Assembly (NCBI GenBank): GCA_963767165.1
Contig: CAVYCV010000003.1
Span: forward strand, 986,509-1,050,508
Source of the DNA: an uncultured Chloroflexia bacterium
GTDB lineage: Bacteria > Chloroflexota > Limnocylindria > Limnocylindrales > CSP1-4
Direction: 5' to 3'
Length of the DNA stretch: 64,000 nt
The translations under genes were made by a program, and so were the position numbers. Shown in pieces: positions 6,941 through 64,000 of this stretch. How positions within the stretch are numbered: position 1 is the first letter of the stretch; every line of letters begins with the position of its first letter. The notes under the pieces are model-generated. The model saw nothing but the letters and a program-made list of their open reading frames with translations, was not told the origin of the DNA and searched no databases.

Positions 6941-8203
6941 GCCGCGGGCCGTGCCGCCCGTGACGCCCGTGATCGACCGGGCGCGCCTGGTCGAGGACCT
7001 GCGGACGCTCGTCGCGGTCCCGAGCGTCACCGGTTCCGAGGAGGCGGTCGCCGCCACGGCCGCGGATCTCCTCCGCGGGGTCGGCCTGGCGGTCGAGGTC
7101 GTCTCGCCCGACCCGGCCGCGGTCCGTGCCGACCCCGATTGGCCCGGGGAGGAGATGCCCCGGACCGCGCTGCCGGTCGTGATCGGGCGGGCCGGGCGGC
7201 CAGGGGGCCGGCGGATCATCCTGTCGGGTCATCTCGATGTCGTGCCTCCCGGCGATCCCGCCACGTGGACCGCCGATCCGTGGGGCGGGGAGATCCGAGG
7301 CGGCGCGCTCTTCGGCCGGGGTGCGTGCGACATGAAGGGCGGGGTCGCGGCGATCCTGGGCGCAGTCCGCGCGCTCGAGGCCTCGGGCGACCTCGACCGG
7401 CTGGATGGCGAGCTGATCGTCGCGCTCGTGCCGTCGGAGGAGGACGGCGGCCAGGGCACGCTCGCCGCGATCCGGGCCGGGGTGACCGGCGACCTCGCGA
7501 TCATCCCCGAGCCGTCAAACCTCGACATCGTCGTGGCGCACGCCGGCGCGATCACGTTCCGGTTGACCGTTCCGGGTCGCGCGGCCCATGCATCGCAGCG
7601 TCGCGAGGGCATCTCCGCCCTCGACAAGCTGTGGGTCCTCTCGAAGGCGCTGGAGGCGGACGAGACGCGTCGCAACGCCGCCGAGACCGACCCGCTGATG
7701 ACGGCCCTCGGGCTGCCGTACCCGACGATCATCGGGATCGTGTCGGGCGGGGAGTGGGCCTCGACCGTGCTCGACCGGGTCACCGCCGACGGCCGATATG
7801 GCGTGCGGCTCGGGCAGTCGGCTGCCGAGGCGGAGGCCGAGCTGCGCGCGGCGATCGCCGCGGCCTGCGCCGCCGACGACTTCCTGCGCGAGCATCCGGC
7901 GCGACGGTCGAGATCACCGGTGGCCGGTTCGGCTCGGCGCGCGTGGCGTCGGACCACCCGCTGCCGGTCGGCCTCGCGAACGTCGCCGAGAGCGTCACGG
8001 GACGCAGCCCAGCGCTGCTCGGCGAGCCGTACGGCGCCGACATGCAGATGTTCGTCAACGTCGGCGCGACGCCGTGCGTCATCTTCGGCCCGGGCGACGT
8101 GAAGGTTGCCCACAGCGCCGACGAGCATGTCCCGCTCGACGAGGTCGAGACCTGTGCGCGCGTGCTCGCGGCCTGGGTCCAGGCGGAGCTGATCGAGGCC
8201 TGA
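6933..8203 (+). CDS. M20 family metallopeptidase (ArgE/DapE-type deacylase), one frameshift near 7895
   Basis: M20 metal-binding motifs 'GHLDVVPPGD' and 'GRGACDMKGG' are present in frame 6933... The C-terminal dimerisation/catalytic part ('GADMQMFVNVGATPCVIFGPGDVKVAHSADEHVPL') is in frame 7139..8203. This gene overlaps the end of the DDAH-like gene by 8 nt. Confidence 0.75.
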
Positions 8204-8258
8204 CCGCCGCGCCATTTTCACCCCTTGACGCGACCGCGACCCGTGCGACGCTGGGGGC

Positions 8259-9323
8259 GTGAGGAAGATCACCGAGAAGACGCCCAAACGCGTCGTCGCC
8301 TGGTCCGGACATCCGGAGGAACGGATCCTCGGGATGGCCGAGGTCGCCGCACGGTTCGGGGTCACCCGCCAACGGGTCGGCCAGATCGCCAGGGCCGACC
8401 GGACGTTCCCGCGGCCGGGCCTGAACGACGGAGCCGGCGCGGCCTGGCTCGCCGCAGGCATCGAGGGCTGGGCGGCTGCGCACCGGCCGACGGCCGACAC
8501 CGGCCGCTTCGGGCCTGAGGTCGCAGCGCTCATCATCCACGCCGAGTCCATCGCCGGGCAGGTGGGTCACCCGTACGTCTCGAGCGTCCACGTCTGGCAC
8601 GCGCTGGCATCGGGCGTCGGCGGGACGGCGCTCGCAGATGCGATCCGCTCGATGGGTCTCGATCCGGCGACGATCGACGAGTGGTTCCGACGCGTCGATC
8701 CCGGGCTGGGCGCAAGCCGATCGAGACGGATGACGCCCGCCACACAGGACCGCCTGGAAGCGGCGGACAAGGTCGTCCGGACGGCGGGCCGGACGACCGT
8801 CCTTCCCACCGACGTCGCACTCGCCTTCGTGGATTCGCATCGATACCGCTGGGGCTCCGACGACCACCTGATCGCCTGCGGAGAGCGTCGCGGTCTCGAC
8901 ACGGCCGAACTCCGGCGCCGGATCACGGTCGTCGCCGCCGACCCCGATGCGCTCGTCGACTTCCCGTCCACGCCGCTCCCGAAGCGTCGGCCGCCGCGCC
9001 GCGGGGCAAGGAGGCCCACGTGGCTGGACCTCGCGCCGAACCCGCTCGGCCACGACCCGTGGGTACGCCGTCCGTGGGGCGCCGGCTTCGCGGTCACCCG
9101 CGAAGGGAAGCACCTCACCTTCGAGGACAGGCACTGGTTCTTCTTCATCGACGCCGACGGCTACTACGTCCGTGCGGCGGACGGGCGCCCGGTGGGTTAT
9201 CGATATCGCGTGCTCCACAAGATGCCCAAGCGGCTGCCGGGCCGGCCGAAGATGGAGATCCTGCCGATGCCGCCATTCCCGCTTCGGGACTGGCCGGACC
9301 GGCGCTACGTCCGCGAGGACTGA
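8259..9323 (+). CDS. HTH (excisionase/MerR-like) DNA-binding domain fused to Clp N-terminal domain repeats; uncharacterised C-terminal region
   Basis: GTG start. 'ILGMAEVAARFGVTRQRVGQIARADRTFPRP...WLAAGIEGW' resembles Xis/AlpA-type HTH. It is followed by two Clp_N-like repeats ('HPYVSSVHVWHALAS', 'TPATQDRLEAADKVVRTAGRTTVLPTDVALAFV'). The C-terminal 'HWFFFIDADGYYVRAADGRPVGYRYRVLH' is not recognised. Confidence 0.55.
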   Translation: MRKITEKTPKRVVAWSGHPEERILGMAEVAARFGVTRQRVGQIARADRTFPRPGLNDGAGAAWLAAGIEGWAAAHRPTADTGRFGPEVAALIIHAESIAGQVGHPYVSSVHVWHALASGVGGTALADAIRSMGLDPATIDEWFRRVDPGLGASRSRRMTPATQDRLEAADKVVRTAGRTTVLPTDVALAFVDSHRYRWGSDDHLIACGERRGLDTAELRRRITVVAADPDALVDFPSTPLPKRRPPRRGARRPTWLDLAPNPLGHDPWVRRPWGAGFAVTREGKHLTFEDRHWFFFIDADGYYVRAADGRPVGYRYRVLHKMPKRLPGRPKMEILPMPPFPLRDWPDRRYVRED

Positions 9324-10588: not shown

Positions 10589-13500
10589 TCAGTCCAGACC
10601 GAGCGTCAGCACCTCGATGCGCGGCGCGACCGGGTCCGCCGGAGGCGGCGTTACCGCGGCCATCTCCAGAAAGCGACAGAACGCGTTCGCCAACCGCATC
10701 TGCGCCGGATTCCGGGCGCGGACCCGCCACAGGTCGGGCGACCCGACCACCAGCGCCACGCATCGGGCCCGCGAGGTCGCGACGTTGAGTCTGTTCCGGC
10801 TGTAGAGGAAGTCCATCCCGCGCGGCGCGAGCTCCGGGCTCGACGTCGTCAGCGAGTAGATGCTGATCGGCGCCTCCTGGCCCTGGAACTTGTCGACGGT
10901 GCCGACCCGCGCCTCCGCGGGCAGCAGGCGCTTGATCGCCCCGACCTGCGCGTTGTATGGCGCGACGATGAGCACGTCGTCCCATCCGAGCGGTCGCGTG
11001 ACGCCATGGCGGTCCATCCATCGCGAGCCGCCGGCGGTCAGGGACCGGGCGATCGCCGCGACCCGTTCCGCCTCGACCGTCGACTCACTGTCGGCGCCGT
11101 CGGTGACGACCTCGATCAGGCGCGGTCCGACGCCGTCGAGGTCGGCCACGGTCGAGTCGAGCCGCTGGATCACGAGATGCGGTTCGGACTCCAGGCGGTC
11201 GTCGTAGAAGACCTCGGACGTGAAGGCGCACAGGGCCGGGTGCATCCGCCACGTGTGCTCGAGGAAGAGGCCACGTTCGGGTGGCATCGTCGCCCGACCG
11301 TCGAGGACGTGGGCCAGGGCCGATCGATCCGCGCCCGCGGGATGGGTTCCCTTGAGTGGCTGGTCGAGCTGTTGCGGGTCGCCAAGCAGGACGAGGTTCG
11401 CGGTCGCCCGGGCCATCGCGATGACGTTCGCGAGCGAGATCTGCCCCGCCTCGTCGACGAACAGCACGTGGACGGCGTCCGCCATCTTCGTCGACACCCA
11501 CAGCCATGCCGTGCCGGCCGCGAGGTTGGCCCGGCCGTCATCGAGACGCGACCGGACGTCCGAGGCGTCCTTCGCGTGCGCGACCGACGGATGATCGACC
11601 ACCTGGTCCTTCGGCCCGTGCTGGATGGCACGGACGTTACCGGGATCGCTGGCCTCGATCACCTCGCGGAGGAGATTGCCGATCACCTTGTGACTCGTGG
11701 CACTGATCCCCACGCGCTTGCCCGCGCGCAGGAGCGACACGATCATGCGGGCCCCGGTGTACGTCTTGCCGGCGTCCGGGTGGTCCCTGGATCGCGAGGG
11801 TGGTCGAGTCGAGCCGACCGGCCAGGCGGATCGCGGCTGCCTCGAGGTCCGCGTCTTCGGGGTCGACCAGCGGGCTGCCGGGCGCCTGCCCGACCCGTGG
11901 CGGGCGCCCGAGCAGTAGCTCCCTGGCGAGCCGGTGCGGGCCGTCGGCGTCGATGCCATGCTCGGCGACCCACTCGCCGAGCTCGAACAGTGACGCCTGA
12001 TGATCGACGGTCCGGACCCAGTCGAGGGCCACGACCGAGCGCGGGTGCGGCTTCTCGACCTCGCGGCGGATGTCGATCGTCAGACCCGCGAGGTCGACGG
12101 CGACCATCTTGCCCGTGTCCCACTCGAACGGGCTGACGCCGGGTGCGGCTTGACTGAGGGCGGGATCGAACAGCTCCCCACGCCCGAGGTCGAAGTCCTG
12201 GTCCGGGAAGGAGTACCGCCATGTCTGCTTGCCCCTCACGGGTTCGTCGAGCGGACCGATCGGCTCGAGCCCGCCAAGCGGCACGTTCTCCTCGATCGCC
12301 TGATCCTCGTCGAGTCCCATGTGGCGAAAGAAGTCCCACCACATCGCCTTGTCCTCGCGACGGTGCCAGCCAAGGAGCTGCGCCAGCAGCCAGCGGCCGT
12401 GCTGTTCGGGGTTTCGGTCGGCGGCGTCCGTCGGGACGATCTCCGGATCGGCCAGGCGGTCGGCGAGCGCCTGGATCCGCGCCTGCGCGTCGGTGACGTC
12501 CTCCGGCAGCGCCTGACGCTCGCCCGGGCGCGGGACCGGTCGGCCGGTCGCCTCGGCCAGCTCGCCACGCAGTGCCTCGAGCCAGTCGCGGAGCTGGCGG
12601 TTGCTGATGACGTCATCGCGGTTGTAGCGCTCGATGCGATCGAGGATCGTCGAGTCCGGACGCTCTCCCTCGCCGAGCTCCAGCCACTCCTCGAACGCGA
12701 CGATGCTCGATCCCGCGTCTCGAAGATCGACCTCGCGCGTGAACCCGTAGAACGCCTCCATCTTCTTGATCGAGTAGCTCTCGACCGAAGCCCGCAACGA
12801 CTGGCGCACGGCCCGCAGGAGGTCGACCAGCGTGCCGGCCCGCAGCAGGTCGTCGACCTCGTTCTCGCGGGTGCCATACCGACCCATGAGGCGCTTGAGC
12901 GCGGTCGGCTCGTACGGGGCGTAGTGGTAGATGTGCAGGTTCGGGTCCGCCCGGATCCGCTCGCCGATGAAGTCCATCACCGCCTCGAACGCGCGACGTT
13001 CGCCATCCAGGCTGAACTCGCCAGCCTCGTCGCGCGACCAGAACGCGTGAAACGTGCCGTCGACCTCGAGGATGCCGAACAGGTAGTCGAGGCCGTCGTC
13101 GAAGGCGTATGGGTCGCCCTCGAGATCGAGGAACAGGTCGCCCGGCGACGGCGGCGGGAGCGAGGCCAGGCCACGTTCCTGGCCGATCGGGTCCTCGCCC
13201 TGCGGAAGCAGGAGCTCGTAGCGGCCGGCCCCGGTGCGACGCCCCTCGAGCTGGATCCGCGCCTGCTCCCGGACCCGCAGGAGCGCCTCCTTGCTCGTCC
13301 CTTCGAGCTTCGGATCCATGGGCAGCGGCAGGTCGCCGAGCGCCTCGAGAGTCGGGCACGCCGCGGTCGATCAGGGCCCGTCGCTGGCGGGCCGAGATCC
13401 CGGCGACGAGGCTGAGGTGGTCGTCCGATCGTCGACGGGCGACGCACTCGGCTGCCCACCGGCAGACATCGCAATGCTCGACAGGTTCGGGATAGGTGGT

Positions 13501-14164
13501 CGCCGGCGGGTAGGTCGCGGCCACCTCGTCGGTCATGGTGGCGAGGAAGCGGGTTTTCGCGCTGCGGTAGTACGCCATGTAGTCGTCGACACGGAGCCGC
13601 TCGACCGCTCGGGCGCTGCCCCCCAACGCCACATGCATCCACTCCGGGCGGACACCCTGGATGAGCTCGAGCTGATCGACGTAGCTGCAGATCTGGAGGA
13701 CCGCGCTCGCCTTGACGTGTCGGGCGAGCTTGGTGTCCGCGACCTCGTAGTGCCACGGCCCCCAGACCGATGGACGTTCCGGGTCGTGAGACGCGCAGAA
13801 GGAAGTCCGCATGCCCGCGCCAGGTGCCGTCGAAGAACGTGGCCTGGAAGATGACGTCGTCGCCCCTGGCCATCGCGTCGATCGTCTCGTCCGCCGCGGC
13901 GCGGAGCTGGTCGCCCTGGTCCGCGATCGATCCGTCGAGCGTGATCGTGGTCGACGTCCGGCCGTCCGCCAGCAGGTCCGCGAGGAAGCGCCGCTCGTGC
14001 TCGAAGCCGCGCTTGCGGATGATGTCGAGCTCCGGGTCGTCGCGCATCGGTCGCTTGACCAGGCCAGCCAGCGCGGCCCGCTCGAGCTGGGTCAGGTGCT
14101 CACAGGCGAGGTAGGCGACGAGATCGGTGGCGGCGTAGACCGGTCGGCCGTCGATGGTCTGCAC
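10589..14164 (-). pseudogene. TM0106-family RecB-like (Cas4-type PD-(D/E)xK) nuclease fused to Superfamily-1 (Upf1/DNA2-like) helicase, ~1190 aa, interrupted by three frameshifts
   Basis: The gene is split across four frames. Frame 12977..14164 has the N-terminal nuclease ('ATDLVAYLACEHLTQLE...GHADFLLRV'). Frame 12613..13812 continues 'WHYEVADTKLARHVKASAVLQICSYV...CDVCRW'. Frame 11637..13319 carries the long linker ending 'LAIQGPPG'. Frame 10589..11959 carries the helicase Walker A and C-terminal domain ('GKTYTGARMIVSLL', 'VLFVDEAGQ', 'VDKFQGQEAPISIY', 'NRLNVATSRAR'). Frame switches occur at about 13790, 13320 and 11795. Confidence 0.8.
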
Positions 14165-14226
14165 GCCTGCACCTTACCGGCTGGCCGTGTCAGGTCGCCT
14201 GTCGCGAGGAGCGATACGCTTCGGCC

Positions 14227-14700
14227 ATGCCGGTCGAGCGACGAAACAGCGACGGATCGCGCCAGGTCGGCGCCGTCGTGGGAGAGCCTCGTCGAGCGCC
14301 AGATCCGCGAGGCGATGGAGGAGGGCGCGTTCAGCGACCTGCCGTTCCAGGGCCAGCCGCTGCCGATCGAGGATGACGCGGCCGCCGGGGAGTGGGCGAT
14401 GGCCCACCGGATCCTGCGCAACGCCGGCGCCGCCCCGCCGTGGATCGAGGCGGACAAGGAGGTCCGCCGGCTGCTCGCCCGTCGCGACGAGCTGGTCTCG
14501 CGGCCGCGTCGGACGACGCCGTCCGGGCAAGCGCGCGAACGGACCGAGCTGACCACCCTGGTCGCGTCGATCAACGAGGCGATCGCCCGGGTCAACGCCG
14601 AGGCGCCTACGATCCGCCAGCATCGTCGCGCCCTCGATCTCGAGACCGAGCTGGCGCGCCTCGACGCAGGCACGGCCGGACTAGGCACGCGCCCCCGGGA
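14227..14700 (+). CDS. DUF1992 (DnaJ-subfamily C28-like) domain protein; boundaries uncertain
   Basis: DUF1992 signature 'WESLVERQIREAMEEGAFSDLPFQGQPLPIED...WAMAHRILRNAGAAPPWIE' lies inside ORF 13811..15178. The nearest ATG (14227) is in another frame and there is no in-frame stop before the downstream VOC gene, so an indel at either end is suspected. Confidence 0.45.
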
Positions 14701-14821
14701 GGGCAGCCACCGGTCGCGAACGGGCGCCCGACGGACCGGTCAGGAATCGAGAAGCGCGGAGCGCGACGGTCTCCCTAGAGTGACCGGCATGGACATCACC
14801 ACCACGCTTCCAGGAGACGAT

Positions 14822-15178
14822 ATGACGACCTCGACGACACTCGGGATCAAGACCGTTCTGCATCCCGTGTCAGACCTCGCGGCGGCCAAGGCCGTGTACA
14901 CCGCCCTGCTCGGCATCGAGCCGCAGGCAGACGCGCCCTACTACGTCGGCTACGACGCCGAGGGACAGCACATCGGGCTGGTGCCCGGCGGCGGACCGCA
15001 GGGCATGACCACGCCGGTCGCCTACTGGCACGTTGCGGACATCGAGGCGAAGCTGGCCGAGGTCACTGCCGCGGGTGGCACCCTGCACGAGGCCGCGCAC
15101 GACGTCGGCGGCGGCCGCCTGGTGGCCACCTTCTCCGACCCCGACGGCAACGTCCTCGGCCTGGTCCAGGACCGCTGA
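14822..15178 (+). CDS. VOC family (glyoxalase/bleomycin-resistance/dioxygenase fold) protein
   Basis: ATG at 14822 is preceded by AGGAGACG. The 118-aa product 'TVLHPVSDLAAAKAVYTALLG...ATFSDPDGNVLGLVQ' is a typical VOC fold. Confidence 0.65.
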   Translation: MTTSTTLGIKTVLHPVSDLAAAKAVYTALLGIEPQADAPYYVGYDAEGQHIGLVPGGGPQGMTTPVAYWHVADIEAKLAEVTAAGGTLHEAAHDVGGGRLVATFSDPDGNVLGLVQDR

Positions 15179-15204
15179 GCGCGGGTCCCACCTAAGATTG
15201 CGAC

Positions 15205-17604
<2,400 letters not shown>

Positions 17605-28506: not shown

Positions 28507-31251
28507 GGACTACGGCGCGAGTGGTGTCGGCGTCGGGGTCGGCGGGACCGGGCGTCGGGGTCGGCGTCGGCGGCGCCGGGGTCGGTGTCGGCGGGACAGG
28601 CGTGGGCGTAGGTGTCGGTTCGGCGGTCGGTGATGGCGTCGCCTCCGATGTCGGCGAGGCGCTGTCTGACGGCGAGGCCGTCGGGGAGGCCGGCGGGCAT
28701 GGCAACGCAGCCACCTCCGACCCGGACGGCGACGGCAGCGCGAACGAGGGGATGACCCCGCTCTCGTCAGGCGTGGGCAGCGGGATGCACGACGGCGACG
28801 GGCTCGGCCCGCAGCCCTCCGCGCCGACGACGGCGCCCCACGACCCGCCGTAGGGCCGGAACGCGCCGTTGTAGAAGAACGCGGTGCGCGTCTTGTTCAC
28901 GCCGCCGGCCGTGCCTGGACCACGTTCCGCGCGCCGGATCCAGTTCCGGTCCGCCTCCATCCAGTTGCCGAAGCGCGTCTCGAAGGCGCCCGGCACCGCG
29001 CCGAGGACGTCGATGCCGCAGGTGTTCGCGGGCAGGGCGTCCTTGGGCTCCGTGCCGGAGATGAACCACTCGTTGACCGACTCGCCGCCGGCCCGTGCCT
29101 TGGTCCCGGTCCATGGGTCGATGGCGACGCGGGTCAGGCCGTCAGGCCGCGCGAACCGGGTCACCGGCCACTTGCGGCTGGCCTCCTGGAGGAAGCCCTG
29201 CCATACGTAGGTGGAAACGTCGATCGAGAACACCGGGCGTCCTGGCGTCGAGACCGGCGTGTTGTCGCTGTTGCCGTTCCACACGCCCACGGTCAGGGCG
29301 TAGGCGCCCGCGTCGCGGCCCTTCTTGGTGGGCGGGGCGATGTAGCCGTAGGCGTTGAGGTCCTTCGCGTCGTTGTTCGTGCCGGTCTTGAGCGTCGCGG
29401 GCCGGCGGGCGTTCTCGCCACGGATCGCGAACTTGCCCCAGTACGGGTTGACACTCGGGTTCGTGTTGCCGGCGAGGATGTCGGTCACGATGAACGCCGA
29501 CTGGGGCTTGATGACCTGGACGGCGGCGGGCGGCGTGTACGTCTCTTGGACGTCCGCGCCGTTTCGATCCTTGATGCTGATGATCGTGGTGTGGCCGACC
29601 TTCTTGCCGCCGTTGGCCAGCGTGGCGTAGGCGGTCACCAGGTCGACCGGGCGGACCTCCGCGACGCCCAGCGCCAGGGCGAGGCCCGCGTCGGTCTTGT
29701 CCTGCTGGAAGGTCATCCCGAAGTCCTTGGCCCGATCGAACACGTGGTCCGGCTTGTTGACCGCCATCGCCTTGACCGACGGGATGTTGAGCGAGAACTG
29801 GAGCGCGTTGCGGACGCGGACAGGTCCGCGCTCGAGGTTGTCGGCATCGCTGGGCGTGTAGCCGCCGCCGAAGTCCGCGGCGCTGTCCATGAACATCGAA
29901 CCGGCCGTGAGCGTGCCATCGTCGATGCCGGTCGCGTAGTTGAAGGGCTTGAAGGCCGAGCCCGGCTGGCGATAGCCCTTGCCGATGACGTCGTACTGCG
30001 GCTGGAACTCTGGTCGGCTCTCGCGTCGCGTAGTACTTGGCCGAGCCGACGTAGGCGACGAGCTCGCCGGTCTGGTAGTCCATGGCGACGAGCGCGCCGT
30101 TGCGCAGGTGCTTGCCCTCGAGGTTCCTGACCCAGTCCGGGTAGGAGTCGAAGTCGAGCGCCTTGGCCTCGGCCGCCCTATTCGCCTTGGGCCGGTGCGC
30201 CAGGAGCGCCGACGCCTCGACCCATTTCTCGGCGATCTTCTGGAGACGCAGGTCGAGGGTAGTCGTGATGCGCAGGCCGCCGCGCTCGAGCGATCGACAG
30301 CTCGTCGCGTCCGGGTCGCACAGGCGCGCGGTCAGCTCGTCGCGGACCGCCCACACGAAGTGCGGCGCGAGCCAGTGCGGCGTGACCTGGCTGGCGAGCA
30401 GGACAACGTCCTTCTTCGCGTTCCGGAATTGCTGGGCTGTGTACTGGCTGCCTGACTTGGGCGTGCGGCCTTCGGCGAGCAGGTCCAGCACGGAGTTGCG
30501 CCGGGCGACGATCGTCGTCGTCTCGGGGACGATGAGGTCCGCCTTCGGGCAATCGGCGTCCTCCGCCACGACCGTGGTGCACTGCTCGATGTGGTTGCGG
30601 ACCAGGTCGTAGTTCGACGGTGACTTGGGCAGGCTCGCGATGATGGCCGCCTCGGCCGGCGTGATGTCGGCGAGCGGCTTGCCGAAGTAGCCCTCGACCG
30701 CCGCCTTCACGCCGTAGCTCTGGTTGCCGTAGTAGTTCTGGTTGAGGTAGGCCGTGATGATGTCGCTGCTTGCCCGCTTCGCCCGCGAACACCTGGGTCA
30801 CCCGGATCGACTGGATGATCTCCTTGAGCTTGCGCTCGACCGTCCGGTTCGGGTCCTGGACGAGGTCTTCCGGAAGCAGCCGCGCCCGGACCAGCTGTTG
30901 GGTGATCGTCGAGGCGCCACGGCTGTTGCCGCGGATGGAATCGAGGCCGGCCGAGATGATCGCCATCGGGTCGAAGCCCGCGTTGTCCCAGAACGTCTTG
31001 TCCTCGATGGCGGTCGTCGCGTCGAGGAGGATCGGCGGGATCTCCTCGTAGGTCACGACCTCGCGACGCTCGTCGCCGAAGCGGGCCAGCTCGGTCTCGC
31101 CGGTCCGGTCGTAGATGATCAATTCCTCGACAGGCGTGATCGCGGTCAGGGCACGCACATCTGGCAGGCCGGAGGCGAGGCTGTTGTAGACGCCGACCAC
31201 GGCGAGCGCCCCGATCAGCCCGATCCCCGCCAGGAACAGCAGGATGATCAC
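28499..31251 (-). pseudogene. class A penicillin-binding protein (PBP1A-type transglycosylase/transpeptidase) with Pro/Thr-rich C-terminal tail; at least three frameshifts
   Basis: The GT51 domain (frame 30178..31251) has 'EDKTFWDNAGFDP' and 'GASTITQQLVR'. The linker and transpeptidase N-part are in frame 29142..30710. The transpeptidase core is in frame 28499..29896 ('KTGTNND' KTG motif). The tail is a 'PTPTPTP' low-complexity region. Confidence 0.8.
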
Positions 31252-39194: not shown

Positions 39195-39698
39195 ATGATG
39201 ACCGCGACGCGAATCGACCGGGGCAGCACCGACACGACGACCATCTACTCGGAGGGCGGCGACCTCGTCTTCGAGCGCACCTTCGACGCACCGCGCGAGT
39301 GGGTCTGGCAGGCCCTGACGGACCCGACGCAGATCCCGCGCTGGTGGGGCCCGCATGGCACCACCACCAGGGTGGCCGAGATGGACGTCCGGCAAGGTGG
39401 CAAATGGCGCTACGTCAGCTCCGCACCGGATCGGGAGGACGTCGAGTTCTTCGGGGAGTACCTGGAGATCGACCCGCCCAAGGGCTTCAAGTGGACGTTC
39501 ATGTTCGAAATCGAGGGTCTCGGCGCCCAGGGTGGCCCCGAGACGTTCACCCTCGAGGATCTCGGTGGGCGGACGAAGGTCCGCTCGGTCGGCCATATGG
39601 GCTCGGCGGAGATCATCGATGGCGCACTGGCGACCGGCATGGTCGGCGGCGCGATCGAGACCTGGGACCGCCTCGCGGCCCTCCTCGCCGAACGCTAG
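39195..39698 (+). CDS. SRPBCC family, AHSA1 (activator of Hsp90 ATPase homolog)-like domain protein
   Basis: Starts 3 nt after the ArsR stop. 'FERTFDAPREWVWQALTDPTQIPRWWGP' is a typical AHSA1/START-like N-terminus. Confidence 0.8.
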   Translation: MMTATRIDRGSTDTTTIYSEGGDLVFERTFDAPREWVWQALTDPTQIPRWWGPHGTTTRVAEMDVRQGGKWRYVSSAPDREDVEFFGEYLEIDPPKGFKWTFMFEIEGLGAQGGPETFTLEDLGGRTKVRSVGHMGSAEIIDGALATGMVGGAIETWDRLAALLAER

Positions 39699-39773
39699 GA
39701 CACTTCCGGCGCCGGTCGTTCCCTCAGCGAGGGACGGTCGGCGCCTCCGCATGTGCGGCTGCCGCCGGGCGGG

Positions 39774-56401: not shown

Positions 56402-57486
56402 CTAGTCCGACGCGTGGTGTCGGAGCTTGACCTCGAGCATGGCCGCGTCGGCTCGCTCGGTCAGCTGATCGGCCGTGTCCCCGGCCGCCAGTGCGGCGAA
56501 CCCGACGCTGATGCCGATCTCGGCCTCGGCCTCGAGCGTGAGAGCGATCGCCTCGAACCGGCGTTCGGCCTCCGCGAGGTCGGTCCCCGTGAGCCCGCAC
56601 ACGAACTCGTCGCCGCCGTAGCGAACGATCGGGTCGAATGAGCGCAGCCGTCCGCGGATCGCGCGGACGACGGACTGCAGGATGCGATCGCCCGCCGCGT
56701 GGCCGTCGCGATCGTTGACGAGCTTGAGCCGATCCACATCCACGAACGCGAGCACGAACCGCCCGTCCGAGCGGCGTGCCCGATCGATCTCGTGCGAGAG
56801 CGCCATGCGGCCCATCTCGCGGCGATAGGCGCCGGTCAGCTGGTCGAGGTGCGCCGAGCGCAATTCCGATTCGAGACGCGCGCGCTCGCGGGCCGCATCG
56901 GCACGCTCGAGCCTGGCTCGCTCGCGATCGCGGCGGCCCGCGCGCGATCGACGGCGGCCCTGGCGGCGAGCTCCTCGAGCTGGTGCAGGAGATCGGCCTC
57001 GGCGCCGTTCATCGACTCGGTCATGTGGGCCGCGCGCGCCTCGCGGTCGTTGGTCGCATGGTCCCGGGCCGTCGCTGTCCGATCCCGCTTGGCCGACGTC
57101 AGGTCGCGGTCGTGCGCGGTCCCGGCCCGCTTGAGGCGATCCACGATCCGCTCGAACGAGCCGCTCGCCCGCTGCTCGCGCGAGGTGTCGTACGCCCGCT
57201 CCTCGGCGGGCGTCAGGTTCGACCGGCCGGCCCGATCGAGGTCCGCGGCCGCCTGGTCCTTGTCCGACGCGCGCTGATCGCGCTCGGAGGTCGTCTGGTC
57301 GGTGCCTGACGACGTCTGATCGGCGTCGGAGGCCGTCTGGTCGGCGTCGGAGGCCGACTGGTCCGCATCGGCCGCCGCCTGGTCGGACTCGACGGCCCGG
57401 CGAGCCTCGAGCACGGTCTCGCGGACCTCGAAGACAGGGTCGCCGACCGACTCGGGGCCATGGATCTCGATATCGGGGTTCTTCAT
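56402..57486 (-). CDS. GGDEF domain diguanylate cyclase with N-terminal coiled-coil / heptad-repeat region, one frameshift near 56945
   Basis: The GGDEF domain (frame 56402..56863) has the 'RYGGDEF' active site. The N-terminal part (frame 56836..57750, starting 'MKNPDIEIHG') contains the 'DADQSASDADQTASDADQTSSGTDQTT' repeats. Confidence 0.65.
57295..57399. repeat. five imperfect 21-bp tandem repeats (consensus CTGGTCGGCGTCGGAGGCCGT on + strand) encoding heptad 'SDADQTA' repeats in the GGDEF protein
   Basis: Direct reading of 57295-57399. Confidence 0.7.
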
Positions 57487-57747
57487 GTGTCGCCTCGGGC
57501 CGGCGCTGCGCGTGCCCGGCTGTGCGCGGATCCGCGCGCGCACCGACACAAACCTACCGCCGGGTCGGGGACCTTCGCAATCGATGAAAACCCTGCATAT
57601 CCGGTCCGCACCATGCGTGCGGCGCGGCGGTCGCGGGATCGGTCGCGGGCCGATCCGACCGGGCCTGGGAGTCGAAAGGGTCCTTGTCCGGAGTGGCGGT
57701 AGACTGCCCCCACGCCCGCCACCCATCGGCGCATCCGTGGCAGGAGA

Positions 57748-58604
57748 CATGGCTGAGGAGATCCCGGCTCGAGGACCAGGCTCGCCGCCGTCAGGCCGTC
57801 TGCGGACGCGTCTCGGACGTTCGGTGCCGTTCGTCTCGGGTGCCGCGGTCGCGCTGGTGGCCGTGTTCCTCTACGGCGTCCTCGTTCCCGGGTACGCCGC
57901 CATTGACCCAGCGTGACGTCAACGACACCATCGCGAGCGCCCTGGCGTCCGTCACGCCTCCGCCGGCGTTCTCGGAGCTGGTCTACCAGGCCGTGCAGCC
58001 ATCGCTGGTGCTGATCCAGACGAACCAGCCCCACGGGCAGGCAGCACAGGACGCGACACCGGAGGAGGACGGCGGCCTCGGCAGCGGCGTCGTCGTCAGC
58101 CTCGACGGCGACATCCTGACCAGCCTCCACGTGATCGCCGACGCGACCGAGATCAAGCTGACGTTCGCCGACGGCACCACGTCGGGTGCCGACGTCGTGG
58201 CCCGCCAGCCCGAGCACGACATCGCTGTGCTGCGGGCGACCCGGCCCCCGGCCAACCTCGTGCCGGCGGTCCTGGGCAATCCCGGCGCCGTCCGGCAGGG
58301 GAGCGAGGCCTACGCGATGGGCAGTCCCTTCGGGCTCTACGGCTCGATGAGCGCCGGCGTCATCTCCGGGCTCGACCGATCGTTCCAGATGCCTGACAGC
58401 GACCGGGTGCTCACGGGGCTCTTCCAGATCGACGCCGCCGTCAATCCAGGGAACTCCGGCGGCGCGCTGACCGACCGCGACGGGCATGTGATCGGGATCG
58501 TCACGGCCCTCATCAACCCCACCGAGGACGACGTCTTCATCGGCATCGGCCTCGCGGTCCCGATCGATGTCGCCGGCGGCGCCGCCGGCCTGCCCCCGTA
58601 CTAG
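57748..58604 (+). CDS. trypsin-like serine protease (S1C/HtrA-like, no PDZ recognised), one frameshift near 57900
   Basis: The N-terminal TM anchor ('VALVAVFLYGVLVPGYA') is in frame 57485... The protease domain (frame 57684..58604) has the 'GNSGGAL' serine motif and the His region 'LTSLHVIADA'. SD CAGGAGAC lies before the ATG at 57748. Confidence 0.7.
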
Positions 58605-58617
58605 AGGAGAGTCGCGA

Positions 58618-59628
58618 GTGGAACAGCCAGACGTCGCCGACCGCGCCGCTCCGATGGAGCGACTCCTGTACGAGGTCAAGAAGGTCATCGTCGGCCAGGA
58701 CCACCTCCTCGAGCGATTGATCGTCGCGCTCCTGGCGCGTGGCCACATCCTCGTCGAAGGCGTGCCGGGCCTGGCCAAGACCATGGCCATCAAGACCCTG
58801 GCCGAGGCGATCGGCGGGGAGTTCAAGCGGATCCAGTTCACGCCGGACCTCGTCCCCGCGGACTTGATCGGCACCCGCATCTACAACCAGAAGAGCGGCG
58901 AGTTCGGGACATCGCTCGGCCCGGTCTTCACCAACCTGCTGCTCGCGGACGAGATCAACCGCGCCCCGGCCAAGGTCCAGAGCGCCCTGCTCGAGGTCAT
59001 GCAGGAACGCCAGGTGACGATCGCGCGCGAGACCTACAAGGTCCCCAACCCGTTCCTCGTGCTCGCCACCCAGAACCCGATCGAGACCGAGGGGACCTAC
59101 GCTTTGCCCGAGGCGCAGATCGACCGGTTCATGATGAAGGTCCTCGTCGGCTACCCGAGCCCGTCGGAGGAGTTCGTGATCGTCGAGCGGATGACCGGCC
59201 TGCTGCCGGTCGTCGGGCAGGTGCTCACGACCGACGGGCTGCTCGCGATGCAGCAGGGCGCGGACCGGGTCTATGCCGATCCGGCGCTGTTCGAATACGC
59301 CGTGCGTCTGGCGACCGCGACCCGCGCCCCCGAGGCCCACGGCCTGGCGGAGCTGAAGCGCTACATCACCTACGGCGCCAGCCCGCGCGCCTCGATCAAC
59401 CTGATCCTCACCGCGCGGGCGCTCGCGTTCGTCCGCGGGCGCGACTACGTCCTGCCCGAGGACGTGACCGACATGGCGCTCGACGTCCTGCGCCATCGCA
59501 TCGTGCTCTCGTTCGAGGCCCTCTCGGACGATGTCACCAGCGACGCCATCCTCAAGACCCTTCTCGACCGGATCCCCGTCCCGGTCGTGCCACTGCGAGA
59601 GCATGGCAACGTCCACGTCAGCGCCTGA
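58618..59628 (+). CDS. MoxR family AAA+ ATPase
   Basis: Walker A 'GVPGLAKT' and Walker B 'LLADEINRA'. The MoxR-specific 'VLATQNPIE' is present. GTG start is preceded by AGGAGA. Confidence 0.85.
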   Translation: MEQPDVADRAAPMERLLYEVKKVIVGQDHLLERLIVALLARGHILVEGVPGLAKTMAIKTLAEAIGGEFKRIQFTPDLVPADLIGTRIYNQKSGEFGTSLGPVFTNLLLADEINRAPAKVQSALLEVMQERQVTIARETYKVPNPFLVLATQNPIETEGTYALPEAQIDRFMMKVLVGYPSPSEEFVIVERMTGLLPVVGQVLTTDGLLAMQQGADRVYADPALFEYAVRLATATRAPEAHGLAELKRYITYGASPRASINLILTARALAFVRGRDYVLPEDVTDMALDVLRHRIVLSFEALSDDVTSDAILKTLLDRIPVPVVPLREHGNVHVSA

Positions 59629-60502
59629 GCGCATCCTCCAGCGCCTCGACTGGCAGGTCATCCGCCGGCTCGATGGCCTGCTTCAGGGCGACTATCGGAG
59701 CCTCTTCCACGGCCAGGGCGTGGACTTCGCCGACCTGCGCGAGTACCAGTACGGCGACGACGTGCGCTACATCGACTGGAGCGTCACCGCGCGGATGGAC
59801 ACGCCGTACGTCCGCGAGTACGTGGAGGACCGCGAGATCACCGCGTGGTTCCTGCTCGACCTGAGCCCCTCGGTCGACTTCGGGACCGCGGAGTCCGAGC
59901 GCCTGAAGCGTGGCGTCCTGGTCGACTTCGTCACGACGCTCGCGCGCCTGCTCACCCGGCACGGCAACCGCGTCGGGGCCGTGTTCTATGGCGGCGAGGT
60001 CGGCCGGACGATCCCGGCGCGCGGTGGGCGGATCCAGGTCCTGCGACTCCTCAACGACCTGCTCGGCCAACCCCGCCTGGCGACGGCGCCGTTCACCGAC
60101 CTGACGCCCCTGCTGGAGGCGGCACAGCACTCGATGAAGGGCCGCTCGCTCGTGTTCGTCATCTCGGACTTCATCAGTGCGCCCGGTTGGGAGAAGCCCC
60201 TGAACCTGCTGACGCAGCGACATGAGGTCATGGCGGTCCGCCTCTTCGACCGGCGCGAGGTCGAGCTCCCGGACGTGGGCCCGCTCATCATGGAGGACTC
60301 GGAGACCGGCGAACAGCTCTACGTCGACACGCACGACAAGGGCTTCCGACGCAGGTTCCGGGAGGCCGCAGACCGGCGGGAGGCCGACCTGACCGAGGCC
60401 TTCCGGCGCTCCGGGGTCGACGCCGTGTCGCTCTCCACCGACGACGATCTCGTCACGGCCATCGTCCGCATGGCGAAGCTCCGCCAGAAGCGTCGGAACT
60501 GA
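59606..60502 (+). CDS. DUF58 domain protein
   Basis: 'GDYRSLFHGQGVDFADLREYQYGDDVRYIDW' is the DUF58 signature. It overlaps the MoxR 3' end. Confidence 0.8.
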   Translation, partial: ATSTSAPERILQRLDWQVIRRLDGLLQGDYRSLFHGQGVDFADLREYQYGDDVRYIDWSVTARMDTPYVREYVEDREITAWFLLDLSPSVDFGTAESERLKRGVLVDFVTTLARLLTRHGNRVGAVFYGGEVGRTIPARGGRIQVLRLLNDLLGQPRLATAPFTDLTPLLEAAQHSMKGRSLVFVISDFISAPGWEKPLNLLTQRHEVMAVRLFDRREVELPDVGPLIMEDSETGEQLYVDTHDKGFRRRFREAADRREADLTEAFRRSGVDAVSLSTDDDLVTAIVRMAKLRQKRRN

Positions 60503-60505
60503 CGC

Positions 60506-61522
60506 GTGACGTTCATCTGGCCGGCGATGCTGCTGCTCATCCTCACGATCCCCCTCGGGGCAGCCGGCTATCTCGCGCTCGAGCGCCGGCGCCGGCGCCG
60601 GGTGGCGGCCTACGGGATCACGGCCGGTCCCGGGTCGGCCGGCGTCCCGAAGCGGCAGGCTGGTCTGCGGCGCCGGATCGCGTCCGCGTTCATCCTCGTG
60701 GGCCTGGCCATGCTCGTGGTCGCGATGGCCCGTCCCCAGAGCGTCGTCAGCGTGCCGCGGGTCGAGGGCACCGTGATCCTCGCGTTCGACGTGTCCGGCA
60801 GCATGGCCGCCGACGACCTCGAGCCGACCCGGATGGAGGCGGCCAAGGCCGCGGCTCGCGCGTTCGTCGAGCGCCAGCCGACATCGATCCTGATCGGGGT
60901 GGTCGCATTCAGCGACAGCGGCTTCTCGATCCAGGTGCCGACCAGCGATCCGACCCCGGTGCTCGCCGCGATCGACCGGCTCGCGCCGGAGCGTGGCACG
61001 TCCCTCGGCCGCGGCATCCTGACCTCGCTCACGACCATCGCCGCCGCCGAGGCCGATCCGGCGGAGGGCTACTACACCAACCGCTCGCCCGACCCGACGC
61101 CCGACCCGACACCCGTGCCGGCCGGGACTCACGCCCCGGCCGCGATCGTGCTGCTGACCGACGGCGAGAACAACCAGTCCCCGGATCCGCTGGAGGCGGC
61201 CGGCGTCGCAGCCGATCGTGGCGTGCGGATCTTCACCGTCGGCATCGGCAGCGCCGCGGGGGCGACGCTCGAGGTCGAGGGCTTCATGGTCCACAGCCAG
61301 CTCGACGAGCCCTTGCTCCGGCAGATCTCGGATTCGACCGGTGGCGCCTACTACGCCGCCACCGACCCCGACGAGCTCGCCGCGATCTACGCGGGCATCG
61401 ATACCCGTCTCACCGTCAAGCCGGAGGCGATGGAGGTCACCTCGCTGTTCGCGGGCGCCGGGGCGTTGATCCTGCTGATCGGTGCCGTCGCCTCGCTGAC
61501 CTGGCTGGGCCGGCTGCCATGA
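60506..61522 (+). CDS. VWA domain-containing membrane protein (BatA-like)
   Basis: Two N-terminal TM helices. The VWA MIDAS motif 'ILAFDVSGSM' and 'LLTDGENN' are present, with a C-terminal TM helix. Confidence 0.8.
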   Translation: MTFIWPAMLLLILTIPLGAAGYLALERRRRRRVAAYGITAGPGSAGVPKRQAGLRRRIASAFILVGLAMLVVAMARPQSVVSVPRVEGTVILAFDVSGSMAADDLEPTRMEAAKAAARAFVERQPTSILIGVVAFSDSGFSIQVPTSDPTPVLAAIDRLAPERGTSLGRGILTSLTTIAAAEADPAEGYYTNRSPDPTPDPTPVPAGTHAPAAIVLLTDGENNQSPDPLEAAGVAADRGVRIFTVGIGSAAGATLEVEGFMVHSQLDEPLLRQISDSTGGAYYAATDPDELAAIYAGIDTRLTVKPEAMEVTSLFAGAGALILLIGAVASLTWLGRLP

Positions 61523-62586
61523 GCTGGCTGTCGCCGGGGTTCCTCCTCCTGCTCGGCATCCTGCCGGTCCTCGTCGCGATCCGCATCTGGGCGCTGCGCC
61601 GCCGGAAGTCGGGGCTGCGCTACTCGAGCCTGTCGCTCGTGCGCGAGGCGCAGCCACGGTCGTCGCGCATCCGCCGCCATCTGCCCTTCGCCCTGTTCGT
61701 CCTGGCCATCGGCAGCCTCGTGGTGGCGATGGCGCGGCCGGTCGACATCGTCAGCCTCCCGGCCGGCCAGACGACGGTCATCCTAGCGTTGGACGTGTCC
61801 CGGAGCATGTGCGCGACCGACATCCCACCCAACCGACTCATCGCGGCGGAGGCCGCGGCGTCGTCGTTCGTCCAGCGCCAGGGATCGAGCACCCAGATCG
61901 GGGTGGTGGCGTTCGCCGGCTTCGCCGAGATCGTCCAGACGCCGACCACCGACCAGGAAGTGCTGCTCGACGTCATCGAGAGCCTGACGACGGGACGGCG
62001 GACCGCGGTCGGCAGCGCGATCCTCACGTCGCTCGACGCGATCGCCGAGATCGACCCCAACGTCGCGCCGAGCCTGTCCGAGGACGACCCGCCCGACTCC
62101 GCGCCGGAGCCGGTGCCGAACGGCGCGTATGCCCCCGCGATCATCGTCCTGCTGACCGACGGCGCAAGCAATGCCGGGCCCGAGCCGGTCGAAGCCGCCG
62201 GCCAGGCGGCGGCCCGGGGCGTCCGGGTCTACACGATCGGGTTCGGGACCGCCAACCCGGCTGCCGGCAGCGCCCTGTGCGGGCAGCAGTTCATCGGCCG
62301 CGAGCCCGTGGGCAACCCGAACGGGTTCGGTGGGGGCGGCGGTGGTGGCGCCGGATTCCGCCGCGCGATCGACGAGGCGACGCTCACCGCCGTCGCCGAC
62401 GCGACCGGCGGTACCTACTACCCGGCCGAGAGTGCCGACGAGTTGCACACGGTCTTCCAGAACCTCCCCACGAACCTGATCATGCGCCACGAGGTGATGG
62501 AGATCAGCGTCGCGTTCGCGGCCCTCGGGGCGCTGCTCGTCGCGCTGGCGATCCTGCTCGGTCAGGCCTGGCGGCCGCTGCCGTAG
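61519..62586 (+). CDS. VWA domain-containing membrane protein (BatB-like)
   Basis: 'ILALDVSRSM' (MIDAS) and 'LLTDGASN', with a Gly-rich 'GGGGGGAG' loop. The start overlaps the previous stop (ATGA). Confidence 0.8.
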   Translation: MSWLSPGFLLLLGILPVLVAIRIWALRRRKSGLRYSSLSLVREAQPRSSRIRRHLPFALFVLAIGSLVVAMARPVDIVSLPAGQTTVILALDVSRSMCATDIPPNRLIAAEAAASSFVQRQGSSTQIGVVAFAGFAEIVQTPTTDQEVLLDVIESLTTGRRTAVGSAILTSLDAIAEIDPNVAPSLSEDDPPDSAPEPVPNGAYAPAIIVLLTDGASNAGPEPVEAAGQAAARGVRVYTIGFGTANPAAGSALCGQQFIGREPVGNPNGFGGGGGGGAGFRRAIDEATLTAVADATGGTYYPAESADELHTVFQNLPTNLIMRHEVMEISVAFAALGALLVALAILLGQAWRPLP

Positions 62587-62606
62587 TTCGCGCCCTCAGC
62601 GGGCGG

Positions 62607-64000
62607 TCACCTGAAGTAGCCGGTCACGTCGAACACCAGGTGGGTCGTGGCCCCGGCCTTGGCCTTGTACACGGCGTTGAGCGTGCCGCCGCTGCCCAGG
62701 GCCACGGTCACCCCGTTGGCCCGCGTGTCGCCGGCCGGGAAGTTGATGGTCGAGGTCGAGCCGCCGGCGGCCGGGGCCAGGACGACGTAGCCGCCCCTGG
62801 TCTGGCGGGTGACGGTCAGGTTGCCGGTGACCGCGACCGCGTTGGCCGGGATCGGCGTGCCGTCGGCGACGACGAAGCTCCGGGCCGTGTTGGCGTGGAA
62901 CACGCCACTCAGGCCCAGGTTCGAGCGGGTGTCGAGGCTGCGCTCGGGGGTGAGCGGGAAGAAGGACGCTCCGGTGGGCCCGTCGAGGTAGTAGCCGGTC
63001 ACGTCGAACACCAGGTGGGTCGTGGCCCCGGCCTTGGCCTTGTACACGGCGTTGAGCGTGCCGCCGCTGCCCAGGGCCACGGTCACCCCGTTGGCCCGCG
63101 TGTCGCCGGCCGGGAAGTTGATGGTCGAGGTCGAGCCGCCGGCGGCCGGGGCCAGGACGACGTAGCCGCCCCTGGTCTGGCGGGTGACGGTCAGGTTGCC
63201 GGTGACCGCGACCGCGTTGGCCGGGATCGGCGTGCCGTCGGCGACGACGAAGCTCCGGGCCGTGTTGGCGTGGAACACGCCGTTGAGCCCGATGTTGCTC
63301 CGGCTGTCGAGCACCCGGACCGGGCTGATGGCATGGAACCGCGAGCCACTGCTGCTGGTGGTGTAGTAGCCGGTCACGTCGAACACCAGGTGGGTCGTGG
63401 CCCCGGCCTTGGCCTTGTACACGGCGTTGAGCGTGCCGCCGCTGCCCAGGGCCACGGTCACCCCGTTGGCCCGCGTGTCGCCGGCCGGGAAGTTGATGGT
63501 CGAGGTCGAGCCGCCGGCGGCCGGGGCCAGGACGACGTAGCCGCCCCTGGTCTGGCGGGTGACGGTCAGGTTGCCGGTGACCGCGACCGCGTTGGCCGGG
63601 ATCGGCGTGCCGTCGGCGACGACGAAGCTCCGGGCCGTGTTGGCGTGGAACACGCCGTTGAGCCCGATGTTGCTCCGGCTGTCGAGCACCCGGACCGGGC
63701 TGATGGCATGGAACCGCGAGCCGGGCGGAGGCGAGACGTGGATGTAGTCGGTCCTCGTCATCGTGTTGCTGCCGGCCGCATTGGTCGCCGTCAGCTTCAC
63801 GGTGTACGTGCCGGGGTTGTACGTGTGGCTCGGCGTCGCCTCGGTCGAGGTGCCGCCATCGCCGAAGTCCCACGAGTACGTCAAGGGGCCGGTCCCGGTC
63901 GATGTGTTGGTGAACGTGACCGCCAATGGCGACGTTCCCGAGGTCGGCGACCCGGCGAAGTTCGCATCCGGTGGCGTCGGAGCCGTCACCTTGATGTAGT
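62607..64000 (-). CDS. secreted PKD-domain protein with three near-identical ~125-aa tandem repeat modules; 5' end (N-terminus) lies beyond the window
   Basis: PKD signature 'LTYSWDFGDGGTSTEATPSHTYNPGTYTVKLTATNAAGS' near 63850-63989, followed by 3x repeats 'RFHAISPVRVLDSRSN...THLVFDVTGYY'. The stop is at 62607. Confidence 0.7.
   Translation of the reverse strand, partial: YIKVTAPTPPDANFAGSPTSGTSPLAVTFTNTSTGTGPLTYSWDFGDGGTSTEATPSHTYNPGTYTVKLTATNAAGSNTMTRTDYIHVSPPPGSRFHAISPVRVLDSRSNIGLNGVFHANTARSFVVADGTPIPANAVAVTGNLTVTRQTRGGYVVLAPAAGGSTSTINFPAGDTRANGVTVALGSGGTLNAVYKAKAGATTHLVFDVTGYYTTSSSGSRFHAISPVRVLDSRSNIGLNGVFHANTARSFVVADGTPIPANAVAVTGNLTVTRQTRGGYVVLAPAAGGSTSTINFPAGDTRANGVTVALGSGGTLNAVYKAKAGATTHLVFDVTGYYLDGPTGASFFPLTPERSLDTRSNLGLSGVFHANTARSFVVADGTPIPANAVAVTGNLTVTRQTRGGYVVLAPAAGGSTSTINFPAGDTRANGVTVALGSGGTLNAVYKAKAGATTHLVFDVTGYFR
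62620..63744. repeat. three direct tandem copies of a 375-bp unit (about 285 bp identical core plus about 90 bp variable linker) inside the PKD-protein gene
   Basis: Unit starts at 62620, 62995 and 63370, each beginning CCGGTCACGTCGAACACCAGGTGGGTCGTGGCCCC. Identical short ORFs at 62809, 63184 and 63559 in the ORF track confirm the 375-bp period. Confidence 0.9.

Follow-up and report, generated by a model that had tools for sequence, protein, structure and literature searches.

A C-terminal triplet of beta-sandwich modules, apparently old, fixed in number and homogenised by gene conversion, in a predicted secreted protein of Limnocylindria

Introduction

A gene that runs off the end of a 64,000-nucleotide stretch of DNA from an uncultured Chloroflexia bacterium (contig CAVYCV010000003.1; the whole stretch is hereafter called the window) closes with three nearly identical tandem modules, which raises the question of how three parts of one protein come to share the same nucleotide sequence and what such a triple unit might do. 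The original prediction, made from the letters of the window, described a PKD-domain secreted protein whose repeats arose by very recent expansion, named gene conversion and a collapsed or expanded assembly as alternatives, and expected a hypervariable repeat number with phase or length variation. The analysis described below indicates that the modules probably form an old triplet of fixed number, homogenised by gene conversion, which may serve as a glycan- or envelope-binding unit on a secreted protein of about 950 aa.

Results

The repeat gene and its protein

The gene lies on the minus strand, in a frame that is closed by a TGA codon at 62607-62609 and stays open to the window end at 64000 (463 aa/codons), and this frame is unbroken across the whole repeat array. 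The visible 463-aa fragment starts in the tail of a PKD domain, which is followed by a complete one and by three 125-aa modules, and the protein ends ('...DVTGYFR*') directly after the last module, at the stop codon. The features of the gene are the following.

62607..62609, minus strand: stop codon TGA (sequence and translation)
62610..62984, minus strand: module 3, C-terminal, 125 aa (alignment; HMM domain 3)
62907-62984, minus strand: first 26 codons of module 3, 'DGPTGASFFPLTPERSLDTRSNLGLS', position-specific and not homogenised (alignment)
62985..63359, minus strand: module 2, 125 aa (alignment; HMM)
63360..63734, minus strand: module 1, 125 aa (alignment; HMM)
62615..62906, minus strand, with the other copies at 62990-63281 and 63365-63656: putative conversion tract, core of 292 nt (identical runs)
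62988..63347, equal to 63363-63722, minus strand: longer tract of 360 nt in modules 2 and 1 only (identical runs)
63735..63974, minus strand: PKD domain, aa 9-88 of the visible fragment (Pfam PF18911, PF00801)
63975..64000, minus strand: end of the preceding PKD domain, 'YIKVTAPT' (comparison with loci L002, L004, L005, L006 and L013)

The PKD domain that had been predicted is borne out by Pfam matches above the curated cut-offs, both to PF18911 (PKD_4; 68.1 bits against 27, E = 7.1e-19) and to PF00801 (47.7 bits against 23.5, E = 1.6e-12). To see the whole protein, the full-length frames of the orthologues at L002, L004, L005, L006 and L013 were compared, and L006:7820-10747 was scanned with Pfam. 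These frames open with a sequence that resembles a signal peptide ('RALGASLLLLVLAGAGVAAAADIG'), followed by about 400 aa of unannotated domain, by two PKD domains and by the three modules, in agreement with the idea that the protein is secreted. No match to the ~400-aa domain, which in L006 is encoded at 7970-9100 ('GSKPESKLWFNDG.WWASMW...DDISSIIAF...GVFWSNQ...ADDH.NLKTDSSGKVY'), was found in Pfam or among PDB sequences. Next to the module it is a second unannotated domain of the protein, and its counterpart in the window gene lies past position 64000.

The module family

The module peptide quoted in the original prediction, which could not name its family, was found in the translation, and the family proved to be nameless in the databases as well: no credible match was obtained against Pfam-A, NCBIfam or PDB sequences, either with a single sequence or with a profile. 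The diphtheria toxin R domain (PF01324) was rejected as a candidate, its 38 bits being the sum of three partial matches and a single module reaching 15 bits where the cut-off is 25; the SAMP2 and nanobody candidates were likewise sub-threshold or summed partial matches only.

When 1.84 billion representative proteins were screened with a family profile (A2), built from an alignment of 52 single modules, 31,734 of them (clusters at 50% identity) matched at E<=1e-3, and of these 22,033 also at E<=1e-10. The family shows the motif 'LDTR...NLTVT...STxNFP.GDxRAN...DVTGYF'; the window modules are recognised as three domains of 188-192 bits each, and they carry the invariant or near-invariant residues R15, D18, R20, N55, T57, S78, N81, D86, R88, N90 and D119-F124. 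In a scan of one genome per species the relatives came almost entirely from metagenome-assembled genomes (MAGs) labelled Chloroflexota, Limnocylindria or Limnocylindrales, the closest at 90% amino acid identity. Look-ups of identical proteins for the gene fragment and for two genes beside it gave no match, an exact 35-mer of linker 2 had none among metagenome contigs, and a protein-based metagenome scan, swamped by generic PKD patterns, returned no close relative. P0001, the top match of the first protein search, was set aside, as its locus (L001) is not syntenic with the window. Taken together, the module represents a domain family that is very large, has no name in the databases and is centred on the Chloroflexota class Limnocylindria.

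Number and position of the modules

The copy number among relatives, which the original prediction had proposed to compare, did not vary as a hypervariable, phase- or length-variable locus would. All eight close relatives compared (L002-L007, L009 and L013, five of them syntenic) have three copies. When 144 top-scoring representatives were re-scanned, three modules were counted in 135, six in 6, nine in 1 and five in 2, that is, a multiple of three in 142 of 144, and the last module ended no more than 10 aa from the C-terminus in 125. The proteins with six and nine modules indicate that the triplet may also occur internally or twice in a protein. Moreover, the fetched genomic loci contain 82 clean three-module genes, in which the nearest neighbour outside the own gene occupied the same position for 74 of the first modules, 61 of the second and 57 of the third. 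Since the triplet is family-wide and its positions keep their identity, these comparisons suggest that it is ancient rather than a recent expansion, and that the three C-terminal modules constitute an old, fixed architectural unit.

The N-terminal partners of this unit are varied and include fn3, CarboxypepD_reg, RCC1 propellers, purple acid phosphatase, subtilase S8, SpoIID, glucose/sorbosone dehydrogenase (GSDH), Big_1/invasin, BNR and PKD, and the N-termini of family members resemble signal peptides. Downstream of the last strand no other anchor motif was found, and the proteins stop there. Paralogues with the triple module are clustered, with six genes in 20 kb in each of L061 and L054; dense clusters also occur in the Limnocylindria MAGs of L018 (four), L033 and L049. 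Many frameshifted module fragments were seen in L049, L026 and L020, which may be sequencing errors or pseudogenised copies.

Predicted structure

The fold prediction suggested with the original prediction was carried out with AlphaFold2, which modelled the single module (A2 alignment) as an eight-stranded beta-sandwich with a pLDDT of 89.5. The 375-aa triple unit, modelled with an alignment of 81 sequences (A3), reached a pLDDT of 95.5 and a pTM of 0.92, a value that flexibly linked domains would not reach, and the three modules are therefore predicted to form one rigid body. That this body would have three-fold symmetry is suggested by the pTM, by the short linkers and by the best structural match of the module, which is trimeric. 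A Foldseek search of the triple model against the PDB gave no global match.

The best fold match of the module is the tip adhesin of the Bdellovibrio prey-recognition fibre, Bd2133 (PDB 8OND and 8OK3; PMC10769870), and further matches were the C-terminal domain of a phage depolymerase and CBM6/35/36. The module shares the beta-sandwich fold of the Bd2133 MAT fibre tip of Bdellovibrio bacteriovorus, but the two have 11% sequence identity and PDB sequence searches missed Bd2133. In addition, Bd2133 is a three-chain homotrimer that ends a beta-helix fibre, whereas in the window protein a single chain bears all three modules, in tandem behind PKD domains; Beta_helix was found in 1 of 55 family members. 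The beta-jelly-roll modules CBM6, CBM35 and CBM36 have no match to the module at the sequence or profile level. Carbohydrate-binding modules are mostly found alone or in varying numbers, and an obligatory triplet is not their usual arrangement. The obligatory rigid triplet suggests that a homotrimeric fibre-tip fold may have been converted into a single-chain pseudo-trimer.

Possible function of the triple unit

The window locus would be the 3' part of a gene for a protein of about 950 aa in which a signal peptide and a ~400-aa domain precede two PKD domains and three beta-sandwich modules. We propose that the triple unit, as a single-chain pseudo-trimer packed into one rigid body, probably binds a glycan, most likely one of the producer's own envelope, and that it would keep a variety of secreted proteins, enzymes as well as adhesin-like ones, at the cell surface or direct them there. 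The anchoring role is suggested by the diversity of the partners, which include the wall-active SpoIID and nutrient-scavenging enzymes, by the clustered paralogues and the lack of any other anchor, and by the lectin-like and fibre-tip fold relatives. By analogy, the triple unit would be a glycan- or envelope-binding module that works like the SLH or CWB2 triplets. SLH trimers offer an anchoring logic to which the triple unit can be likened (PMC6081394), and tandem CWB2 motifs anchor Clostridium difficile wall proteins to PSII (PMC4973711). The SLH (PF00395) and CWB2 (PF04122) triplets of Firmicutes have the same layout, with tandem copies at one end of varied secreted proteins, but they are unrelated to the module in sequence and fold, with no Pfam match at E<=1. 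The SLH fold is helical and the CWB2 fold is alpha/beta. A more specific version, which we put forward tentatively, is that the triplet could be an unrecognised anchoring device of Limnocylindria and related Chloroflexota in which three fused sandwiches, similar to the Bd2133 tip, bind an envelope glycopolymer.

A related MAG (L001) encodes an SLH-domain protein, so that another anchoring system may already exist in the lineage. In a paper on Limnocylindria, PKD, S-layer, cell wall and adhesins go unmentioned.

The main alternative is that the triple unit faces outwards, as a lectin or adhesin head for external polysaccharides (plant or microbial) or for other cells. This is a possibility to be taken seriously, although we do not regard it as probable. 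It agrees with the fold matches, the best of which belongs to a prey-recognition fibre and the others to the phage depolymerase and the carbohydrate-binding modules (PMC10769870), and with the PKD, fn3 and Big stalk domains that precede the triple unit. However, the partners of the unit also include enzymes whose targets are the producer's own wall or soluble nutrients (SpoIID, subtilase, purple acid phosphatase, GSDH), and the module sequence is conserved across dozens of paralogues whose N-termini differ, which fits a common ligand better; neither point is decisive.

It is improbable that the unit, rather than binding a ligand, is a C-terminal secretion or sorting signal, similar to the CTD of the T9SS, or a self-assembling domain of an S-layer lattice. 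A strictly C-terminal unit common to many secreted paralogues would suit such a role, as would the beta-sandwich nature of the modules; but 375 aa in three modules far exceed the known sorting CTDs, no sorting-domain model of Pfam or NCBIfam matches, no dedicated secretion genes were seen beside the gene within the window, and in the proteins with six and nine modules the triplet may be internal or double.

Genomic neighbourhood

The repeat gene converges with an operon at 58567-62586 on the plus strand, whose genes have overlapping stop and start codons, and a peptidase gene lies just upstream of this operon.

57684-58604, plus strand: trypsin-like peptidase (Pfam Trypsin_2, E 1e-30)
58567-59628, plus strand: MoxR AAA+ ATPase
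59531-60502, plus strand: DUF58 protein
60506-61522, plus strand: BatA-N/VWA protein
61519-62586, plus strand: BatA-N/VWA protein

The MoxR-DUF58-VWA-VWA operon is kept beside the orthologous gene in L002, L003, L004, L006 and L013. The Trypsin_2 peptidase gene is also kept in the syntenic loci L003, L006, L002 and L013. The stops of the repeat gene and of the converging VWA gene are separated by 20 nt (62587-62606) that contain a small inverted repeat, CGCCC-TCAGC-GGGCG, without a T-run, and a scan of this gap for a consensus terminator found none. In the window, as in L006 and L013, these two genes are direct neighbours; between the repeat-gene stop and the VWA gene there are 4-5.5 kb of extra DNA in L002/L003 (~10750-14790) and L004 (~11115-16630). 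Elsewhere in the window, ARAGORN called a 'tRNA-???' with a four-base anticodon (ggga) at 39631-39719 on the plus strand; this call is probably a false positive, since no RNA family of Rfam reached the gathering threshold anywhere in the window.

Origin of the identical repeats

The three near-identical 375-bp tandem modules of the original prediction are real. Tandem Repeats Finder reported a single array at 62615-63753 (period 375, 3.0 copies, score 1930), which is the sole large tandem repeat of the 64-kb window, and a repeat search gave three copies of 300 nt spaced by 375 nt with 99-100% identity. Short imperfect tandem repeats in GC-rich sequence were seen at 57247-57386 (period 42, ~2.5 copies) and 28526-28594 (period 21/28, ~3 copies). 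The predicted identical core exists as well, although base-by-base comparison gave it a length of 292 bp instead of about 285. Copies 1 and 2 share a longer identical run of 360 nt, with their differences confined to a linker of about 12 nt. Copy 3 has 42 mismatches, concentrated in the linker and in its first 78 nt (the 5', N-terminal part, 62907-62984), which are ~59% identical to the other two copies. The identical tracts of 292-360 nt include all synonymous sites, and identity over such a length rules out chance; the GC3 of 0.97 narrows the synonymous choice, yet it leaves 97 consecutive identical codons in triplicate unexplained.

The comparison with orthologues points to the process behind this identity. 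In the loci that share the downstream MoxR-DUF58-VWA-VWA genes (L002, L003, L004, L006 and L013) the linkers keep their positional identity, with 'T.SS.GSRFH' for linker 1 and 'L[DE]GPTGAS[FY]F' for linker 2. In a nucleotide identity matrix, the opening 75 nt of the modules sort by position across genomes, and the N-part of window module 3 is 83% identical to that of module 3 in L002 and 76% to that in L006, against 59% to that of window module 1; this grouping by position indicates that the triplication is old. In contrast, the remaining cores of about 290 nt group by gene and not by position, with 100% identity inside the window, inside L002 and inside L003 and 94-97% between these genomes. 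The other orthologues show different patterns: modules 1 and 3 are 100% identical in L004 and L013, with module 2 at 85-87%; modules 1 and 2 are identical in L005, with module 3 at 90%; and all three modules are diverged in L006 (78-81%). More widely, about 15 of the 82 three-module genes have two or more modules with at least 93% nucleotide identity, and the rest stand at 60-80%.

Because the identical modules of L004 and L013 are not adjacent, tandem duplication or simple unequal crossing-over cannot be their source; cycles in which unequal crossing-over shortens the array and extends it again could imitate conversion of neighbouring modules, but not the pattern in which module 1 equals module 3. 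These sequence comparisons indicate that the identity of the cores comes from repeated intragenic gene conversion, with tract boundaries within the module and a copy number held at three, so that the alternative offered in the original prediction is the one that stood. According to this mechanism, repeated non-reciprocal exchange among three old modules would have homogenised the cores, the position-specific N-terminal segments and linkers would have stayed diverged, and selection would hold the module count at three. All highly homogenised relatives are MAGs of one project (MFD isolates), apparently long-read assemblies, as the fragmented protein matches at several MFD loci suggest frameshift errors, and polishing could have erased a few differences between their modules.

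The first choice of the original prediction, a very recent double duplication of one module within the gene, with a copy number as free as that of a length-variable adhesin, is very unlikely and already largely refuted by these comparisons. It would account for the nucleotide identity of the 292-360-nt tracts, synonymous sites included, and for the near-identical modules of the ~15 related genes, but it conflicts with the three modules that are ancestral family-wide (135 of 144 representatives, with multiples of three in 142) and present in each of the eight close relatives, with the linkers and N-parts that are positionally orthologous between genomes, with the three old, diverged modules of the syntenic L006, and with the non-adjacent identical modules of L004 and L013.

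Also very unlikely is an array collapsed, expanded or homogenised by an assembler or polisher: identical repeats of 300-360 nt do exceed the short-read length, and many database relatives are fragments broken inside modules, as short-read assemblies break in near-identical repeats, but the order PKD, module 1, linker 1, module 2, linker 2, module 3, stop and converging VWA gene is, linker by linker, that of independently assembled orthologues, the reading frame runs unbroken through the array, three is exactly the expected number, and a misassembly would not leave module 3 alone with an N-part that is diverged and orthologous. The copy number of three in the window is supported by its colinearity with the orthologues.

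Discussion

The proposed history of the gene, repeated conversion among three old modules whose number stays constant, resembles in part that of Gram-positive surface proteins of the Rib/alpha C, Esp and Aap type, which have long in-frame, DNA-identical repeats homogenised by recombination. The window gene also has DNA-identical in-frame repeats, but strains differ in the number of repeats of the Gram-positive proteins, and these repeats build an extended stalk, whereas the number here is fixed at three, the modules keep old positional identities and their packing is predicted to be globular. The family falls among known kinds, the tandem-triplet surface modules and the beta-sandwich glycan binders, and no new principle is demonstrated by it.

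Near-identical repeats within a gene, as at 62607-64000, are not in this case a sign of misassembly. The orthologue series, in which all modules are diverged, modules 1 and 2 are equal, modules 1 and 3 are equal or all are identical, offers a clean case of concerted evolution at a fixed copy number.

Limnocylindria are an abundant, uncultured class of soil and freshwater bacteria, and for the module family neither Pfam nor NCBIfam offers a model, nor is there a structure of the triplet. If the family were named, a large share of the secreted proteins in this class would gain an annotated C-terminus. If the proposed function is true, each genome would use the anchoring triplet for dozens of secreted enzymes and adhesin-like proteins, in the manner of SLH and CWB2 in Firmicutes, and intragenic gene conversion would repeatedly reset the three subunits of the triplet to near-perfect three-fold symmetry.
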